Below are positions 219 through 13,310 of a stretch of DNA of 64,000 nt, piece after piece. Source of the DNA: Candidatus Bathyarchaeota archaeon (lineage in GTDB: Archaea > Thermoproteota > Bathyarchaeia > 40CM-2-53-6); contig CAWABQ010000018.1 in the NCBI GenBank assembly GCA_963780265.1, forward strand, positions 2,558 through 66,557, read 5' to 3'. The position numbers and the translations under genes are program-made. The notes under the pieces were generated by a model. The model was not told where the DNA came from. It saw nothing but the letters and a program-made list of their open reading frames with translations, and did not search any database. Positions within the stretch are counted from its first letter, which is position 1. The number at the start of each line of letters is the position of its first letter.

Positions 219-440
219 ATGCATGAACTTCCCAAGGCGTTGAACGCCGACTGGGCGCCGTTGACCTGGCATTTCTATCAGGCCCAGGACGGAAAGCCGA
301 CGGTGTACATCAACGACGGATTCGACTTGCTCTCCTTGGCCAGACATATGATTGAATTTGATGGGACCGTGCGGCCAAGCGTACTCTGCACAACATGCGG
401 CTTCCACGATGACGTCAAGCTTCTAGGATGGGTTCCATAG
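219..440 (+). CDS. Phage protein, hypothetical (head-tail joining region by position)
   Basis: 73-aa ORF, translationally coupled on both sides (tagATG). Confidence 0.45.
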   Translation: MHELPKALNADWAPLTWHFYQAQDGKPTVYINDGFDLLSLARHMIEFDGTVRPSVLCTTCGFHDDVKLLGWVP

Positions 441-797
441 ATGCCTGGTTTCAGTATTCAGATCATATCGGACACGGTGACGGCTAAACTCATTGCGGCC
501 GCGCAGCTGATGGCGCAGGGTATCCAGGACGGGTTGGAGGCAGCTGGCGCGGATATGGAAGCCACCGCCAAGCAGATAGTCCCGGTGAGAACCGGTTTCC
601 TGCGAAGCACCATCTACCATCAAGTTGACCCCGTGGCCCTCAGCCTAGAAGTCGGCGCCGACGCTGACTACGCGTTCTTCGTGGAGATGGGAACCAGGCG
701 GATGGCTGCGGAACCGTACATTCGGCCGGCCTTCGACGCCCACCAAGACCAACTCCTGCAAGCCTTGACCCTCGGCATCATGTCGGCCTTCCAGTAG
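441..797 (+). CDS. HK97 gp10-family tail completion / head-tail connector protein
   Basis: 118 aa. The ...AKQIVPVRTGFLRSTI...ADYAFFVEMGTRRMAAEPYIRPA pattern is typical of the HK97 gp10 family. Confidence 0.8.
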   Translation: MPGFSIQIISDTVTAKLIAAAQLMAQGIQDGLEAAGADMEATAKQIVPVRTGFLRSTIYHQVDPVALSLEVGADADYAFFVEMGTRRMAAEPYIRPAFDAHQDQLLQALTLGIMSAFQ

Positions 798-845
798 TTT
801 TCCTTGTCACAGTCTCATTGAGACCTGACGGAGCGTGAAAAATAT

Positions 846-1283
846 TTGCCAAAATACGATGGTGATGAGGTTGAAGTCCGCATAGGAATAAGCGCGGCCG
901 CCGCCACAGCCGCAACGCCCGTAACTAACCTGGAGAGCATCACATACAAAGCTGACCAAAGCGCCACAGAAGTGCCCGTAGGCATCGGCTCTCGAGCGAC
1001 AGAAGTCCATGAGAAACTCGTCAAGTACACCGGGGCAATTACCCGCTGGAACGATGAAGTCGCGACTGTATCTGGAGGCACGGGATCCCTAGCAACGGAC
1101 GTAGGCGCTTTCACAACAGCAGCGTTGACACCGCTCTACGTGGAAATCAAGAACAAGACGTCAGCTACGAAGATCCAGTTGGTCGGTTGCATAGGCCTCT
1201 ACTCAGAGGACCTCAAGAGCCCTGACGGGTTCCTGATGGAAACCTGGGACTTCAAGTTCTCCTCGATAACCAAGAGCCCATAG
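846..1283 (+). CDS. Putative major tail protein
   Basis: 145 aa with a TTG start. Sits between the gp10-like gene and the tail chaperone. Assigned by synteny only. Confidence 0.5.
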   Translation: MPKYDGDEVEVRIGISAAAATAATPVTNLESITYKADQSATEVPVGIGSRATEVHEKLVKYTGAITRWNDEVATVSGGTGSLATDVGAFTTAALTPLYVEIKNKTSATKIQLVGCIGLYSEDLKSPDGFLMETWDFKFSSITKSP

Positions 1284-1320
1284 GGCTTTTGTTAGCCCTT
1301 AAGATTGGAGAGATGGAGAT

Positions 1321-1635
1321 ATGGAGAAAAGTACCTTAGCGAAAGCAGACGCCAAGCCCCCCAACACTATTTCTTCCGGCGTAACTCAGCCTAGCGGTAG
1401 CGCCGACCTGAAATTCCTGGTCAGCTTCGGTGTTGTGATCAGCTGCCGGCTTGGCGACGTGGAACACATACGCAGCCTGATCCAGGGAGTGGGCGGTCGC
1501 ATCGTGTTCCAAACCGTGAGTAACGGTCCCCTCTTTCTGTTTCGTGCAGGTCAAGTGGAGAGGGCCCTGGCTGGTGATGTTTCCGCGCTTGCGGAAATTC
1601 ACAATAAGAAAACAAGAAGGAGTGAGAAGTTTTGA
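1321..1635 (+). CDS. Hypothetical phage protein
   Basis: 104-aa ORF co-oriented with the module. An antisense ORF of similar length exists, so coding is uncertain. Confidence 0.3.
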   Translation: MEKSTLAKADAKPPNTISSGVTQPSGSADLKFLVSFGVVISCRLGDVEHIRSLIQGVGGRIVFQTVSNGPLFLFRAGQVERALAGDVSALAEIHNKKTRRSEKF

Positions 1636-2003
1636 GTGAGAAAAGGCAAGCAATCCTGGAAGCTCGAGAACAGAACAGAGAACTAGCGAAACAAATCGAA
1701 CAGGGAACCAGCTACCATAAACCCGTCGAAATCAGAGGCAAAGACAACGAACTGCACACGTTCGAAGTCTTTCCTATGTCCGACGCAGACCTGGCAGAAC
1801 TCTTGGAGACTACGAACGTTGACCTGAAGGATATTGGCAACAGGGACAAGATGTTGACGAACGTAAAATTCCTTATGAAAGGTGCCGCCATCGTTACCGG
1901 CGTCCCCGACATCGCCAAGGCATTGATGCCCATGGAATCCCTGAAGTTGATTTCGAAAGGCTTCGAGCTCAGCGGCCTGACTGGGGGCCCAAAACCCGCC
2001 TAG
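1632..2003 (+). CDS. Tail assembly chaperone (lambda G-like)
   Basis: 123 aa and acidic, lying between the major tail and tape measure genes. A slippery heptamer sits 7 nt before its stop. Confidence 0.6.
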   Translation: MSEKRQAILEAREQNRELAKQIEQGTSYHKPVEIRGKDNELHTFEVFPMSDADLAELLETTNVDLKDIGNRDKMLTNVKFLMKGAAIVTGVPDIAKALMPMESLKLISKGFELSGLTGGPKPA

Positions 2004-2155
2004 GTGCATTCGCCCAGGGGTCCGTCTACTCGGCCCCCCTCGAAGTCCTGGTATCAGGGTTCGGTTATCGGCTAACGGACCGTATGGACGAGCTCACCCC
2101 ACTGCAGCGAAACTGGCTGCTACAAATTTTCAAGAAAGAACATTCGAGGAAGTGA
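1632..2155 (+). CDS. Predicted -1 frameshift fusion product (lambda GT-like)
   Basis: After the slip the reading is ...GGPK/TRLGAFAQGSVYSAPLEVLVSGFGYRLTDRMDELTPLQRNWLLQIFKKEHSRK, adding about 54 aa. Confidence 0.5.
1988..1994 (+). promoter_or_regulatory. Candidate -1 programmed ribosomal frameshift site C_CCA_AAA
   Basis: Matches X_XXY_YYZ in the zero frame of the chaperone gene. The -1 frame stays open from here to TGA at 2153-2155. Confidence 0.6.
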
Positions 2156-2183
2156 CCTGAATTGAGTACGAATAGAGATACTT

Positions 2184-2285
2184 GTGACCCAATTCGGCTA
2201 CAAACTCACCAATCGGGTAGAAGACCTCACTCCCTTGCTAAGGGCGTGGTTTCTGGAGATATTTGCCAAGCAACGCCGTAGTTAG
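2184..2285 (+). CDS. Small ORF paralogous to the frameshift extension
   Basis: GTG-initiated, 33 aa: VTQFGYKLTNRVEDLTPLLRAWFLEIFAKQRRS. About 16 of 30 residues match the extension peptide at 2060-2152. Confidence 0.35.
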   Translation: MTQFGYKLTNRVEDLTPLLRAWFLEIFAKQRRS

Positions 2286-2459
2286 TGCTTGCGAAGCAGA
2301 CGAGACTCGGACCGATAATCTCGCCTTATTCTGTAGAATTTCAATCGCTCGCTTCGCGTCGTTGTACTAATTCAAAGCTCTCTAGCTATCTCTGGGAACT
2401 CCTTCTGATGCTCATTTCACTTTTTGGGCACTGGAATCCTTGCGATTGTTGAATGCGCT

Positions 2460-3430
2460 CTAAAAATGCGTTTGGTCTTCGACTATCCAAGAATTCTGCC
2501 AGTTGATAGTATCACTTGCAGGAAGGGGAACCCAATTCGCGTGTAAACAATCAGTCGAGCCGCAATTAGCCGTCCAATAGCCGTAAGGAACTGTGTTAAA
2601 GGGATAAACCGGTTTGTACGGATCAAGGATTTCACCTGTCTTTCCACCCGCAGTACCTAGCTCTAAATGGACAACGATGCTTCTGGTATATCCTCTGTGT
2701 CCTGCTAATGCTACTGGTTGATATCTGGATACACTATCACCTATTCTCACAAGAACTTCTGAACTGTGAGCGAGGCCAATATCATATCCTAGAGTTGAAA
2801 TAATAACCCAGTTATCGGGTGTATCTGGGTAAGCTCTTGTTACAATTCCGGGCGCAAGGACGGAATAATATCACCTTCTTCCGCCAGAAAGTGGGTGCCG
2901 GAATCATTATCAACACTCTCGTCAGTGGCCCCGTTCCAGGCCAAAGTGGAGCCTTTACGAGGATCCCTGTCATAATAACCACCATGGTCAAGATCAATTC
3001 CTTTCTTCGGATAACTTAGAAATCCTTGCAGCAATCCAATGCTCATCTTAGGATTGTTTTCACCAACAGCAATATAGTAACCATGCATAATTCGTCTGAC
3101 TTCGTTAACGCTCTGGCACATGTAAGGGAATTCATCAGTAACTGGATACACAGAATAATTCCCTTTTGGAAGATCGACTTTGAAATCTCCAGACGAATCA
3201 GTAGTCGCTGTTGCAACAACCTTAGTTACGACAATAGCATCAGTAATTATGACCTGCGCGTTTTGAACTGGTGGCTCGCTGTCAGTATCATCCTGTATCC
3301 CGTTCCCTGCGGTTCCATACTGGCTAGTACCCCTGTCGAAAAAGAGCCTTCCTTCCTGCGTGTAAGTCTGCGGGGAAGTGGAGTAGGTTGCGTTTGAGGA
3401 CTCGGTAATCTCCTGGGTGAGGCTGGTCAT
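2460..3430 (-). pseudogene. Carboxypeptidase-regulatory-like plus M23 metallopeptidase, apparent frameshift near 2858-2864
   Basis: The upstream frame ends ...SGTHFLAEEGDIIPSLRPEL*. The next frame continues VLAPGIVTRAYPD...IGDSVSRYQPVALAGHRGYTRSIVVHLELG, an M23 HxH-type core. A 1-nt deletion would explain the break. Confidence 0.6.
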
Positions 3431-3705
3431 CTCCTGCCCCGGGTTGTATTCTGCGGATAAAGCGCATTCCTGATTGGCCCGCCATAAAGAAAATCAGCCA
3501 ATAACCCAGCAACTCCAACGGTTGCAATCAACCCCCCGATAACGAATTTTCTCCTTGTTGCTTGGAAATGAGTTAGCCCATTATTCTCTCCGCTGTAAAT
3601 CATTTCGACATTTTTCTTGATTGCGCTGTTCATTGAGTAAGGAGTGGTCAGCGGTTCGGATGCTTTTATTGCCAATCGGTTTATGAGCTCTCTTATGTCC
3701 TTCAT
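3427..3705 (-). CDS. Small membrane-anchored protein
   Basis: 92 aa with one TM segment (FVIGGLIATVGVAGLLADFL). ATGA overlap with the downstream peptidase ORF. Confidence 0.5.
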   Translation of the reverse strand: MKDIRELINRLAIKASEPLTTPYSMNSAIKKNVEMIYSGENNGLTHFQATRRKFVIGGLIATVGVAGLLADFLYGGPIRNALYPQNTTRGRR

Positions 3706-3947
3706 ACACTCACAGCTTGTTTTCAGCGTGATCTAGTCTGACCTGGGTCCCCACGCCAGAAGGAAACATCTCCAAGAAAGCAATAGTCCGAGTTGCATTT
3801 ACTCTTGTTGCTTTGCAAGAAGTTATGAAAACTGCGAAAGCCGTGAGAACTATCTTCTTCGTTTCTTATCCAAAGATTCTCACGGGTTCTGTACTCAACT
3901 CCTAATGGAATGACTGAGTTGAACTTCAAGTTTCTTGAAGTCCTGCT

Positions 3948-4822
3948 TCAATCACGGCTCTCTTCTCTTGTATAAGAATCCACGGGGCGATTTGATTGAG
4001 CGCCTCCACAACACGGTCCGCACAAAAGGCCGGATTTGTATTGATTCTCATGTTCCCACAGGCGAAGAATATGCCACTTGTTCGCCTTGAGGATCATGTC
4101 GTGTAGGACATCTCTAGAGCGCACATCTGGGCGATTATGCCAGTAGTCACCATCACAAAACACAGCCAGTTTCTTTTCAGGGAAGGCGATATCTGCCTGA
4201 CACCGATTCAGAACCGGATAATGCTTTGCAAAGACCAATCCCCGGTTTGTCAACTCAAACTGCATCGATCGCTCAATTCCCGTGTCCCTGGTCGGGAAGA
4301 TTTGACGCAGCCTCGCTTTCCGAATTTTCTCGCGTTTTCCTGCGAAACTTTGCGTCCCCGAAGTTTCTCGCGTGTTGACTGCGAAACATGACAGCCCCTC
4401 CTTGCTTCATGCAAAATATTCAGTCGCCGTTCGCGCTCTATCGGTGAGAGGCCCTTCCAGTATTCCTTGTGTTTCCGTGCAGCGTTCGCACGAATTGAAA
4501 GTAAGCGGCTGGTGTTCGCTACTCCAAGACAGTGTAGCGAACAATACTTCGGGCTTCGGGTTCCTGGGCGCCTTCGCCTGCTATCCGAAACGTGGAACGG
4601 TTTACCACATCGCATACATGCAAGAGTGACACCTGATTTGTTCCAAGGTATGCGCCCCCGTTTCTTCAAAGACGCAGAGGGGTATCTTTTCCCTGTATGA
4701 ATTGCAACCATATGTTGACGGTATTTAGAATCTCGCCAAACTTCTCTTTGTACTTCGGATCGCATGGCGCGGAAACTCTCGGGCATCTTCCGGTCTTTGT
4801 TCCATGGAACCTGATTGGACAT
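3948..4822 (-). pseudogene. Free-standing homing-endonuclease-like gene: NUMOD3-type repeats plus a Vsr/DUF559-like PD-(D/E)XK nuclease, split by a frameshift near 4310-4324
   Basis: The N-terminal ORF has VPWNKDRK, IPWNKSG and HVSQSTREKLRGRKVSQENARKFGK motifs. The C-terminal ORF has ADIAFPEKKLAVFCDGDYWH...WHILRLWEHE. The nuclease frame stays open upstream through the junction. Confidence 0.6.
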
Positions 4823-4965
4823 TGTTAGGGGAGTTACGATCGCTGGTTTACCTAAGAAAGCGATAGGTGGGTGAAAGTAACGGATTGTCTACGAATATCG
4901 GATCCATCGTATAGTAGCAGCAGCTACGCGAATTTGCGATCCAAGCTGTAGATGAAGCATCGGGT

Positions 4966-7222
4966 GTGATGGGGAAGATTTCTGCTGCCATGGGTTTAAT
5001 CGGTTCGGAGCTTGAGACACTCGGCCCAGGTTTCTCGCAACTTGGCCAGGTGATCCAGGGCTTTGCTGTCGGTGGCCCGGCCGGTGCGGCGATCGTAGGC
5101 CTCGGTGAAATCGCCAAAGGCATACAGGACAGTGTTGCAGCTGCGGCTGGCCTGCAGACAGTGTGGACTGACCTGCAGTCAACCATGCATTTGACCGGCG
5201 CCGCATGGGACGCGATGAAAACCCAGATTGACGCTGTCGTTGAATCCCTTCGAACAACCACAACATTCAGCGACACGCAACTGATTGGAGCCTTTCAGCG
5301 ATTATCAACTTATGGCATGACAGCCGCCCAGTCCATGGATGCGTTGAGGGCTGCAACTGAGCTGCGGCAGCGAAGCATATTGACCTTGAAACTGCAGCGA
5401 CCGCCCTCGGCAAAGCGTTTCAAGGAAATGATATGCTGCTTGTCAGGTACGGTGTTGACGTTGCTACCGTAGCCAAGCAAGTATCGTTGGGTACTGAAGC
5501 CATCAAAGAAATGGGCGTTAATCTTGAGAGCGCTGGGACAACGCAGCTTACAGCCTTCTCTGCTGCAGTGACAGCGGCAGGCTTGAGTCTTACAGATGCA
5601 AACGGGAAGTTGCTTACTCACGCAGCAGTTCTGAAAGAGATAACGGCCGCGTGGAAGGCTGGCTCTATTGACGCTGATCAACTGTCAACGATTGTAGGCG
5701 CCCTCGGCATCAACTTCCAAGGCAGCAAAGCCCTGGCTATGGATTACGCGGCTGTGCTTGGCCAGGTGAACACGCAATATGGAGGCGCCGCCCAAGCCCA
5801 GGCGACCACCTACGCCGGCCTCCAGGAGCGCCTAGCGAATGCGTTCCAGGTGGTGAGTGAGAAAATTGGCACCATGCTTCTCCCAGCCCTGACTTCTATC
5901 CTGGAAGCGCTCCTTCCAGTCATTGATGGTTTCAGCAGGGGCGTCGACGCGATACAATCATGGGTTGCAGCTGTAGGGAAAATCCCTGCTGTGCAAGGCG
6001 CGGTTAGTGCCTTCCAGGGCGTTTGGGACGGCCTCACAAAATCCTTCGACAATGCCTGGAACTCGGTGAAAGGAGACTTCATGCCGGCACTGCAGGACCT
6101 GCAGAACGCTTTCAACGAACTCGCTACCGCCCTGCAGCCCGTATGGGATGCTCTCAACGAACTATGGCATGCGGTCACTGGCAGCACTGGCGACTTCAAC
6201 ATATTCCAAGCGCTTCTCGAAGGCGTCGTGTTCGTAATCAAAGCCCTCGCAGAAGGCATCCGCCTAGTCATCCCCATTGTCAGTTTGTTCGCGCAAGGTT
6301 TCAAACTCCTCGCCGACATTATTGGGCCACCCATCACGTGGATCATGAACACGCTAGGCGCGTCTTCAAATGGTTGACCGATGGATTCCAGGCGTTCTAC
6401 GATTGGCTTGTCGGCCACTCCCTCTGGCAAGACCTGTGGGCTAAGGTTTGGGATGTGGTAGACAGCGCTATCATCGGCCTGGTCAGCAGACTTACAGGCG
6501 GACTGTTCGATTGGTTGAAAAGCAGTTTCACCGACACCGTTAGCGCCATTCAAGGCAGTTGGAACAGCATCGTTAGCGCCGTTACGAACTCACTCGATAC
6601 AATTTCCACCAAGATTCGAGGACAGTTCCCTGAGCTGTCCAAAATCATCACCGGCGGAACAGAGATACTGAAAGGCAACTGGATGCAGGGAATAAGTGAC
6701 ATTGCAGCCGCGCTTCCAGGAGCCTGGGCGGAAATCACTTCAGCAATCTCGAAAGCCCTAAGCGACCTAAACACGGTGCTTGCAAATGCGTGGACTCAGA
6801 TGCAAAGCGCCGCTCAGTCAGCTTTCAATGAGCTGCAAGGCATCGTGAACAACGCTCTCTCAGGTATAGCTGCAGCCGCAAACGCTCTCTGGAACAGTTT
6901 AACGCATCACTCCATTTGGCCGGACATGATGGCTGAACTTGTAGCTCAAACAAAGGCCGGCTTGGACGCAGTTCAAGGTGAATTTCAGGATGCCTTCGCA
7001 TCTCCTACCGGGATTATTCAGACCGTGCAGGCAGGCGGTCAAGCAACAGCTGCCGCGAGTAGCCCAGCCGCAGCGTCTGCAACCCCTGGAAGCCTGGATA
7101 CAAGCCAGGCGATCACCTTACCCATCAACGTGTACCTGGACGGCCAGCAGATCCAAGCCTTCCTCGAGAAGCGCATCGTGGCAACCATGGTGAGAGATGC
7201 GAGTAGGAGTAAGCGAGCATAG
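4966..7222 (+). pseudogene. Tail tape measure protein, read in three frames (shifts near 5362 and 6360)
   Basis: ORFs 4966-5472, 5361-6377 and about 6360-7222 join into a continuous helical Ala/Gly-rich protein (...ALRAATEL/AAAAKHIDLETAATALGKAFQGN... and ...PPITWIMNTLGA/FKWLTDGFQAFYDWL...). Confidence 0.75.
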
Positions 7223-10637: not shown

Positions 10638-11230
10638 ATGACGACCTACTTCGACAATGCATACTTTGACCCTGCTTACTTCACATCAACCGTCGGCATC
10701 TCCGTTCAAGGTATACCACTTCCACCGTGGAACTCATCCGTCGCATAGCCAGCCTCCTACTTGGCTTGCAACCCATACCAAGCCCAAGCGCCCAGTCCGT
10801 AACCTACTTCGGCAATATGTATTTTGACCCTGCCTACTTCGCAGCAGTCGCAGCCGTTCCTCATTCCATATCTCGGTACACCCGGCAGTTGGCCACGAAT
10901 GGTGATGCCTGGGAAATTGGAGGTCTCACCGACCACGTAACCCTGGAGAAGCTCTTCGCGCTCCCAGACAACGGTACCGTCTGGGTTACGGATTCTGACC
11001 GCGGCTGCTTCCATGCCATCCTCGAAGTTGAAGCAGCCTGGACCACGGAGGATGTCGTGGAGGTCGCGGCATTTGTTCCTTACTTCGGCAATGTGTATTT
11101 TGCCGCTACCTACTTCGCAACTGTCGGTATCGCTGCAAGTGATTCTGGGAGGAGACAGTACATGGTTCGGTTGAGTGTGACTGAGAATGTGTTTGACCCT
11201 TCAGTGTTCGACCCGTACGCTTACGAATAG
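10638..11230 (+). CDS. YF-repeat protein: ORFs 10638-10748 and 10727-11230, possibly one gene
   Basis: Three copies of the motif YF-x-N-x-YF-x-x-x-YF (TYFDNAYFDPAYF, TYFGNMYFDPAYF, PYFGNVYFAATYF). The first copy lies in a 36-aa ORF overlapping the second ORF by 22 nt in another frame. Confidence 0.45.
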
Positions 11231-12707: not shown

Positions 12708-13310
12708 GTGCCGGAGAACAGTGTCGAAGCTCGAGAAAGCCTTCCTGCTGGGGGTAATGCTGTACGGTACGTCGCGTACGCAGTTTTGGCGGTAGCGGTC
12801 ATGGCATTCGTTATCGTTTTTCTTGCCACGCCAGGCTTCTCACAAGCGTTAGGGATTAATGATGTTACAACGACCGTGACGCAAACAACCACGGTAGTAA
12901 CGACTATGTCTGTGGAGGCTACTCCGTCGGCTACAGTGTCCATAGAAACAACGCCCGCAACGACGCTTACCATATCGGTAACCCTTACGGATTCCACGGG
13001 AGAAATGGTAGATACGACGGTAACCACTGTAGCAGCTTTGCCTGTCACTGTCGAGACCACCGAGATAACGATAACTCCAGATACTACTACGACTGTGACT
13101 CCGACCGAGACTTCCACTACGACTGTGACTCCAACTACGAGTGCTACTACGACTGTGACTCCGACTGAGACTGCTTCTACTACTACTTTGACTTCAACCG
13201 AGACCTCGACTACGACTGTGACTCCAACTACGACTGCTTCTACTACGACTGCGACGGCGAGCGTGACCTTCGGCTCGTCACCGCAGAACGTACTGTTCAC
13301 AGTCTACTGA
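12708..13310 (+). CDS. Thr-rich membrane-anchored repeat protein
   Basis: 200 aa with an N-terminal TM segment (YVAYAVLAVAVMAFVIVFLATPGF), then TTTVTPTETS-type repeats. The mirror Val-rich antisense ORF is judged an artefact. Confidence 0.5.
   Translation: MPENSVEARESLPAGGNAVRYVAYAVLAVAVMAFVIVFLATPGFSQALGINDVTTTVTQTTTVVTTMSVEATPSATVSIETTPATTLTISVTLTDSTGEMVDTTVTTVAALPVTVETTEITITPDTTTTVTPTETSTTTVTPTTSATTTVTPTETASTTTLTSTETSTTTVTPTTTASTTTATASVTFGSSPQNVLFTVY
13086..13225 (+). repeat. Coding tandem repeat, 30-nt period
   Basis: The exact 17-mer ACTACGACTGTGACTCC occurs at 13086, 13116, 13146 and 13209. Confidence 0.85.

Follow-up and report, generated by a model that had tools for sequence, protein, structure and literature searches.

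A predicted -1 G/GT frameshift in the tail chaperone gene of a Bathyarchaeia provirus, and a T-peptide fragment probably left behind by recombination

The window, a stretch of 64,000 nucleotides (nt) from a Bathyarchaeia archaeon (contig C18:2558-66557 of a metagenome-assembled genome, MAG, that is 75% complete), carries near its start part of a viral tail module in which two reading frames overlap. The open reading frame (ORF) at 1632-2003 is well supported as encoding the G-type tail assembly chaperone of a siphovirus-like Bathyarchaeia virus, and a real -1 frameshift at the heptamer C_CCA_AAA very probably makes both G and its extended form GT. A second, partial copy of the T peptide, referred to here as copy 2, lies a short way downstream and is probably a relic of recombination with a diverged relative. 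The joint reading, a programmed -1 G/GT frameshift accompanied by a recombination relic, is given a probability of roughly 0.7.

The G ORF lies on the plus strand, begins with TTG downstream of a Shine-Dalgarno (SD)-like sequence, GAAGGAGTGA, at 1616-1625, encodes 123 amino acids (aa) ending in ..LSGLTGGPKPA, and terminates at TAG. A sequence-only reading of this DNA had pointed to a slippery heptamer at 1988-1994, and the site is present on the plus strand, in phase with the G frame and of the form X_XXY_YYZ, in the context GG(C CCA AAA) CCC GCC TAG. Its position close to the stop codon (2001-2003) also stands, with a spacing of 6 nt in place of the 7 nt first counted, a discrepancy of one at most. 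The -1 frame stays open between 1826 and a TGA at 2153-2155, and its portion from the heptamer onward, the T extension (1994-2155, plus strand), is open as had been claimed, with 53 codons following Pro-Lys and not 54; a slip would yield a GT product of 174 aa with the junction ..LTGGPK|TRLGAF... The last codons of the extension carry the SD of the next gene, which encodes the tape measure protein (TMP). In the -1 frame no ATG, GTG, or TTG precedes the Met of ..DRMDEL.., so the conserved part of T cannot start alone. At its 3′ end G is overlapped by a second ORF in another frame that lacks its own initiation site, and C_CCA_AAA is the only conserved element in an overlap of ∼34 nt.

Relatives of the locus were found in Bathyarchaeia MAGs and IMG/VR contigs, L002-L005 in peat and soil samples, and DNA was compared for 11 distinct lineages, namely the window, L001, L002/3/32-35, L004/27/28, L005/29/30, G260/L010, L020/21, L022, L023, L024, and L031. 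In-phase CCCAAAA occurs in 11/11 of these lineages, at G identities down to 54%, and the -1 ORF is retained in all of them, which bears out the sequence-only reading both in its proposed comparison of homologs and in its placing of the phage G/GT strategy in an archaeal context. The codon ahead of the heptamer varies (GGC, ACC, ATC, TCC, or GCC), and the 0-frame tail past it is unconserved, running for 2-15 codons of variable sequence to a TAG, TGA, or TAA. The -1 frame, in every lineage, reads ..SVYSAPLEVLV(S/T)GFGY(R/K)LTDR(M/I)(D/E)ELTPLQ..KQHPR... A wider set of 50 G homologs with 54-100% identity gives the same picture, as all 39 that were inspected end in ..LSGLTGxPK plus 2-17 variable residues. 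L010, L023, and L024 have a -1-frame stop 21 nt ahead of the heptamer, and the nearest 0-frame stop in the family lies 6 nt downstream, which together confine the shift to ∼34 nt. Codon usage in the G ORFs of these loci gives a chance of ∼0.033 per lineage for NNC-CCA-AAA at Pro-Lys. Every locus scores 112-127 bits against a hidden Markov model (HMM) of the T peptide, and between near relatives the T frame has a pN of 0.04-0.07 against a pS of 0.41-0.58, a contrast that, on the 31 codons from which dN/dS was calculated, marks the frame as being under purifying selection.

That T might be made without a frameshift, by internal initiation or from a single G-T frame broken by a sequencing error, has an almost negligible probability, as the frame break and heptamer recur in 11 lineages from independent assemblies, the T frame has no conserved start codon, a run of four A is too short for transcriptional slippage, and the TTG ahead of ..VTGFGY in L001 is a chance occurrence that offers nothing specific in favor. 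Readthrough of TAG as pyrrolysine, considered for both the G stop and a TAGTAG in the TMP gene, was rejected: the genome has no PylS, and relatives terminate G with TAA or TGA. The public contig of L022 ends in Illumina adapter sequence (AGATCGGAAGAGCACACGTCTGAAC, L022 2600-2631), which cuts the T frame and is a trivial artifact of that record.

From the site, its two frames, their conservation, and the gene neighborhood, we infer that a minority of ribosomes would slip by -1 on C_CCA_AAA, with the P-site tRNA-Pro leaving CCA to re-pair with CCC and the A-site tRNA-Lys reading AAA both before and after, and would translate the 53 further codons. If the proteins behave as in phage lambda, the G portion common to both products would cover the tape measure protein and the T portion would bring in the tube protein. 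The efficiency of slippage would set a fixed G:GT ratio.

The two-frame arrangement extends to more distant viruses, in which the T-peptide profile matches small called ORFs. L037 encodes a 178-aa G-like protein ending in ..RPPKN*; its in-phase heptamer is A_AAA_AAC, and its T lies in the -1 frame. L011 and L012 (same order; genomes G115 and G131) have a T-type peptide in the +1 frame, with homology established by profile comparison at E-values of 1.7e-16 for G and 4.9e-7 for T, and L036 also has its T-type peptide in the +1 frame. Each of the short overlaps in L011, L012, and L036 contains CC_UUU_CGN, as ACC_UUU_CGC in L011 and UCC_UUU_CGU in L036, a plausible candidate for a +1 site at which the P-site tRNA would move from UUU to UUC before an Arg CGN codon. 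In one further virus a T-like ORF in the +1 frame is preceded by a 144-aa ORF and followed by a TMP confirmed by Pfam, and a Phage_tube_2 protein is encoded upstream. Because the two-frame G/T layout is kept while the frames differ, the layout is older than any particular slip signal. Marginal hits in genomes G129, G156, and G237 were discarded as chaperones, being ribbon-helix-helix-like proteins instead.

The gene order of the module agrees with this assignment, and the predicted structure of G weakly resembles phage G/GT chaperones. The AlphaFold2 (AF2) model of G has a predicted local distance difference test (pLDDT) score of 80.5, and its top PDB match is the HK97 tail assembly chaperone 2ob9, a weak match with an E-value of 0.17 and a template modeling (TM) score of 0.39-0.43. 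Matches in BFVD, with E-values of 1e-3 to 0.3, are to G, GT, and tail assembly chaperone proteins, those named including a 'pre-tape measure frameshift protein G', the N15 'tail assembly protein GT', and several 'tail assembly chaperones'. A sequence search of the PDB with G gave no match. Upstream, the 145-aa product of the gene at 846-1283 (plus strand) anchors the chaperone position as the major tail (tube) protein. Its AF2 model (pLDDT 72) has tail tube proteins as top Foldseek PDB matches at E-values of 4e-5 to 5e-4, among them those of phage 812, siphophage R4C, Sf11, and the monocin tube (8q01, 8gtb, and 9occ among the entries); the alignments behind both models, of G and of the tube protein, are shallow. 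Downstream, the TMP gene of the window is damaged, and its ortholog in L001 is intact at 772 aa and matches nine PHROG tape-measure families, the best with an E-value of 3e-22. G lies between the tube gene and the TMP gene, with one extra 104-aa ORF between the tube gene and G, and in relatives only 5-40 nt separate the end of T from the start of TMP.

A hairpin at 2010-2043 (plus strand), with the core GGGGuCCG-N6-CGGCCCC at 2017-2037, came to light when the downstream RNA structure was examined as the sequence-only reading had suggested. Although conserved, the hairpin begins 15-22 nt past the heptamer and contains one compensatory pair (in L004), and 75/500 shuffles do equally well. The fold z-score of the region is -1.1, no better than shuffled sequence, and single-sequence folds differ from locus to locus. 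Its role as a frameshift stimulator is doubtful, and it was set aside as such on the grounds of its distance and its single compensatory change.

Copy 2 occupies 2172-2285 on the plus strand and comprises the last 37 codons of a diverged T gene (..IEILVTQFGYKLTNRVEDLTPLLRAWFLEIFAKQRRS*), a 3′ fragment that takes in the ORF at 2184-2285. The sequence-only reading had described that ORF as a stand-alone paralog of the T peptide, a claim whose homology is sound and whose independence is not. A BLASTP comparison with the tail of T gives 16/31 identical residues (52%) and 25/31 positives, with a pairwise E-value of 7e-13, and the T HMM matches 2172-2276 over profile positions 18-52 at 58.7 bits. 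The homology reaches upstream of the supposed GTG start at 2184, to ∼2172 (..IEILVTQFGYKL..), the stop codon lying at 2283-2285, and this GTG has no SD. Copy 2 has Leu at the Gln of LTPLQ, a Gln that is invariant in every other T seen, distant ones included, and it has lost the ..KQHPR end, changes that would fit relaxed constraint since its arrival. The two peptides also part company in their distribution: the T peptide is conserved in 11/11 lineages, and a T-profile scan of six-frame translations of 17 loci found a second T-like stretch only in the window and, in shorter form, in G260, with none in the 15 others.

The divergence between the resident T (copy 1) and copy 2 is old. Of 31 codons, 12 differ at the first position, 4 at the second, and 27 at the third, with saturation of synonymous sites, so most of the divergence arose when each copy still belonged to a functioning T gene. 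No T peptide is markedly nearer to copy 2 than any other (17-20 of 31 residues), and the corresponding figure for copy 1 and its near relatives is 27-28 of 31.

The surroundings of copy 2 indicate how it came to its present position. In blastn comparisons with L001-L005 and G260, the window loses homology to its relatives at 2166-2172 and regains it at 4939-4951, and the intervening DNA, a foreign insert of ∼2.77 kb at 2175-4938, occurs in none of those relatives. The insert is single-copy in the genome and has a guanine-cytosine (GC) content of 0.46 compared with 0.54. It lies inside the coding start of TMP, so that a remnant of the resident start (TTG AGT ACG AAT A, or TTGAGTACGAATA, at 2162-2174 on the plus strand) is cut off by it, and both the 3′ end of T and the 5′ start of TMP are duplicated. 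Copy 2 begins ATA GAG ATA CTT GTG ACC CAA TTC GGC.. and directly abuts this remnant, whose TTG at 2162, which retains its SD, now opens a junk 39-aa ORF (2162-2281) that reads copy 2 out of frame. At the far end, on the plus strand at 4865-4911, are a second SD (AGGTGGGTGA) and a second TMP start (TTG TCT ACG AAT ATC GGA TCC ATC GTA, 4885-4911; MSTNIGSIV), followed at 4912-4938 (plus strand) by a 27-nt filler, TAGTAGCAGCAGCTACGCGAATTTGCG, that contains two in-frame stops (TAG TAG) and a small hairpin. The filler stands in for 6 nt (2 codons) of the relatives, a net gain of 21 nt or 7 codons, after which TMP resumes with codon 12 at 4939. Both flanks are closest to L002, with 79% identity on the left and 76% on the right, which makes the insert a patch of foreign DNA in a genome like that of L002; a single crossover bringing in the whole right side from a donor was rejected for the same reason.

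The arrangement required of a donor exists in the family. Small minus-strand ORFs lie between T and TMP in L005, L029, L030, and L023, together with a rebuilt (G/A)TAGGTG SD like that at 4865. These junction ORFs encode 85 aa in L005 (6509-6915; also L029 and L030) and 68 aa in L023 (∼710-978). On the relic reading, a segment of ∼2.77 kb from a diverged relative of the same virus family, already bearing cargo between the T stop and the TMP start as in L005 and L023, would have recombined into the 5′ end of the resident TMP. The left joint would be illegitimate, linking resident TMP nt +13 to donor T codon -37, possibly through AATA microhomology, and the right joint would lie in the TMP 5′ region beside the 27-nt filler. 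Such an event would leave the T 3′ end duplicated, the TMP start duplicated, and TMP disrupted, in a locus that is otherwise rearranged and decaying.

A congener provirus, G260, offers a parallel. Its G, heptamer, and T are intact, and its TMP start breaks off after TTGAGTACAAA (TMP nt +11), followed by 1.77 kb of cargo that encodes a DUF5678 protein and a GNAT acetyltransferase and is unlike the cargo of the window. After the cargo come the last 17 codons of a T gene, an SD, and a full TMP start, and the cargo is flanked by a junction repeat of 58 nt with 51/58 positions identical. Near the start of the G260 TMP, of which only the first half is left, is a stop-containing mini-insert of 24 nt, CCGTAACAAAAACGGCGCCGTCAC (L026 reverse complement ∼4525-4548). 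The same provirus (L026 = G260:C4:78000-92000, reverse complement 300-4600) has MazE/ParE and PIN/UPF0175 toxin-antitoxin pairs between the 104-aa ORF and G, with a duplicated 5′ fragment of G beside them, such that each insert is flanked by partial duplicates of its junction. Among the first 20 TMP codons, the window (TAGTAGCAGCAGCTACGCGAATTTGCG) and G260 (CCGTAACAAAAACGGCGCCGTCAC) each have a mini-insert of 24-27 nt that is in frame and contains stop codons and a small hairpin, and both may be joint filler. The loci of the window and G260 are provirus remnants with cargo gathered at gene junctions.

Several points weigh against the joint reading. There is no convincing stimulatory RNA structure at the usual spacing of 5-9 nt; the lambda G-T site is not known to need one. 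Neither G nor GT matches a chaperone family in Pfam, PHROG, or NCBIfam, which does not exclude a chaperone function since such families are many and divergent, and the fold scores of G are modest (TM 0.4-0.55). The donor of copy 2 was not found by scanning for back-translated patterns, that of YKLTNRVEDLTP in viral, genome, and metagenome collections and that of EDLTPLLRAWF in metagenomes. The relic reading does not account for the 27-nt filler, the left breakpoints of two independent events (window +13, G260 +11) are 2 nt apart, and there is a small probability of a misassembly, considered below.

The proximity of those breakpoints hints at something more specific than random illegitimate recombination. 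If the duplication at the chaperone-TMP junction were the footprint of site-directed cargo loading in this virus family and not a random scar, then unrelated cargo, breakpoints at +13 and +11, a T 3′ fragment inside each insert, and a hairpin-bearing filler of 24-27 nt near each right joint would be the basis for it, and these features may carry that meaning. A further feature comes from L005, in which a 16-nt match to the T-internal coding sequence for ..LVSxFG.. starts at the last 4 nt of the T gene (CTAG, including the stop) and runs past it, with 0/300 shuffles reaching its score. Near-identical breakpoints, stop-containing fillers with hairpins, and the L005 match leave room for a site-directed insertion process, which is unlikely. 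Were it true, it would fit cassettes in which the junction copy serves as 'attachment' homology, by a Campbell-type or template-switch route, or else cleavage of the TMP start by a nuclease.

That the T-TMP junction was locally duplicated in tandem in a single genome and then drifted, with cargo arriving later, is quite unlikely as the source of copy 2. It would account for the fact that both TMP starts of the window encode MSTN(I), unlike most relatives, and the much more similar repeat pair of G260, at 88% identity, lends it some color. Yet MSTN is also the TMP start of G260 and is accordingly a trait of the sub-lineage, neutral drift would spread differences evenly and not place them at 27/31 third and 4/31 second positions, and copy 2 resembles distant lineages no less than it does copy 1.

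The MAG is incomplete, at 75%, and the start of the contig is scrambled, which raises the prospect that the duplication is an assembly chimera of two co-occurring related viruses. This is very unlikely, given that no more than 4 nt are shared at the left joint, much shorter than the k-mer of any assembler, that the insert has unique genes and sequence continuous on both sides, and that G260, an independent assembly, shows the same kind of structure.

Copy 2 could, finally, be a functional small protein, a free mimic of the T domain that acts as a decoy by binding the tube protein or TMP or as a second chaperone module. Its frame is intact over 37 codons, it keeps most motif residues (FGY, LTPL, W, and IF), and its divergence pattern speaks of past purifying selection. 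A fragment of a donor gene that once worked would show that pattern just as well, however, and copy 2 has no SD and only a GTG start, the TTG at 2162 with its SD reads the wrong frame, the invariant Gln of LTPLQ is lost, and no relative has a free-standing ORF of this type. A function of this kind is highly improbable; if real, copy 2 might interfere with tail assembly of superinfecting relatives. A relic of recombination with a diverged relative remains the preferred account of copy 2.

The cargo of the insert, ∼2.6 kb in total, comprises minus-strand ORFs at 2840-4822 that were compared with Pfam, PHROGs, and NCBIfam. The ORF at 2840-3430 has a prealbumin-like/CarboxypepD_reg domain, with sub-threshold Pfam matches to CarboxypepD_reg, SdrD_B, and a prealbumin-like family and no M23 match in Pfam, and the small ORF at 3427-3705 has a hydrophobic stretch that by eye looks membrane-spanning. 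The 105-aa ORF at 3948-4265 encodes a Vsr/MTES_1575/DUF559-type nuclease domain (MTES_1575 at 39.9 bits against a cut-off of 38.2, with Vsr and DUF559 weaker). The adjacent 190-aa ORF at 4250-4822, in a different frame from the nuclease ORF, is an orphan, with no homolog in 5.8 billion proteins, IMG/VR, or congeners. The three ORFs besides the nuclease domain have no informative matches. The cassette was found nowhere else in its own genome, 22 congeners, IMG/VR, or the protein database, and for this reason, and because the 190-aa ORF is an orphan, a free-standing homing endonuclease cassette was rejected as an identity for the insert, which is not classed as a known mobile element.

Other genes of the module complete the setting. 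A tail-completion protein gene at 441-797 is HK97 gp10-like (PHROG 5, E-value 3e-20). The 104-aa ORF at 1321-1635 (plus strand) occupies the same place in relatives, and its TGA overlaps the G start (TTGA); it has no convincing match in Pfam, PHROG, or NCBIfam, its sole PHROG match being weak and untrustworthy (E-value 0.097), and it is an extra gene compared with the usual tube-G-T-TMP order. The remainder of the TMP gene runs from 4939 to 7222 on the plus strand, as traced by tblastn with the intact TMPs of L001 and L002, and compared with intact orthologs of 767-772 aa it is readable only with two frame changes, near 5364-5424 and 6344-6362, which are either real decay or assembly indels. 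Further downstream, virion-module genes contain short direct repeats of 45-79 nt with 82-87% identity, at 10644-11126 and 13084-13255. At the contig start, C18:75-3364 (window -2482 to 807; L025) forms part of an imperfect giant inverted repeat of ∼3.6 kb with 73% identity, in which the viral connector and tail-completion region is present a second time, diverged and inverted, head to head with the provirus. At contig positions 2305-2585 the sequence then jumps over ∼1.08 kb with respect to relatives, and the 2.5 kb ahead of the window, most of which belongs to this inverted copy, has no long ORFs and no Rfam match.

Bathyarchaeia are an abundant, uncultured class of archaea, and for one of their virus families these results provide a well-supported prediction of -1 ribosomal frameshifting. 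The clean and conserved C_CCA_AAA makes the site suited to reporter testing. The -1/+1 switch within one protein family, with a shared candidate CC_UUU_CGN, is material for studies of archaeal recoding. For annotation, G and T belong together in these viruses, and 2184-2285 does not merit a gene call. In decaying archaeal proviruses, as the junction duplications show, cargo piles up at the chaperone-TMP boundary, toxin-antitoxin pairs and a nuclease among it. A 2024 survey of Bathyarchaeia viruses (PMC10848311) mentions neither the frameshift nor a chaperone.

The insert and its joints recall the mosaic joints and moron insertions of tailed phages, which arise by Hendrix-type illegitimate recombination. 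In general terms, the cargo of the window resembles such morons in lying at a gene boundary on the opposite strand, with a different GC content and with flanking gene ends partly duplicated. It differs in that the joint lies inside the TMP coding start and disrupts TMP. A further difference is the left breakpoint of a second provirus, 2 nt off, a degree of site specificity beyond what a random-joint model predicts.

Among archaeal viruses, a review (PMC5009743) describes predicted G-T frameshifts in haloarchaeal tailed viruses, of the -1 type in four viruses and +1 in HSTV-2. The Bathyarchaeia family is like these in sharing an archaeal translation apparatus and in having both -1 and +1 solutions among related viruses, here -1 at CCCAAAA or AAAAAAC and +1 candidates at CC_UUU_CGN. 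The four -1 viruses, for which the review shows the numbers 1, 2, and 5, are presumably HCTV-1, HCTV-2, HCTV-5, and HVTV-1. The host phylum and virus family differ.

The closest model is the tail-chaperone frameshift conserved in long-tailed phages and exemplified by lambda gpG/gpGT (Levin 1993; Xu, Hendrix and Duda 2004, 2013, 2014, as summarized in PMC5009743). Like lambda and other long-tailed phages, the Bathyarchaeia module places the gene after the tube gene and just before the tape measure gene, and, like gpG/gpGT, it has two overlapping frames, an X_XXY_YYZ heptamer near the end of G, and a T without its own start, and its modeled G fold weakly resembles a chaperone. Unlike gpG/gpGT, it has no detectable sequence similarity to named chaperone families, its T part is short at 53 aa, the tube gene and G are separated by a conserved additional ORF of 104 aa, and the host is an archaeon of the class Bathyarchaeia. 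The G/GT frameshift is well known from phages and has been inferred for haloarchaeal viruses, and the Bathyarchaeia case adds to this known type, with two modest extras, the -1/+1 switch within one protein family and the junction duplications.

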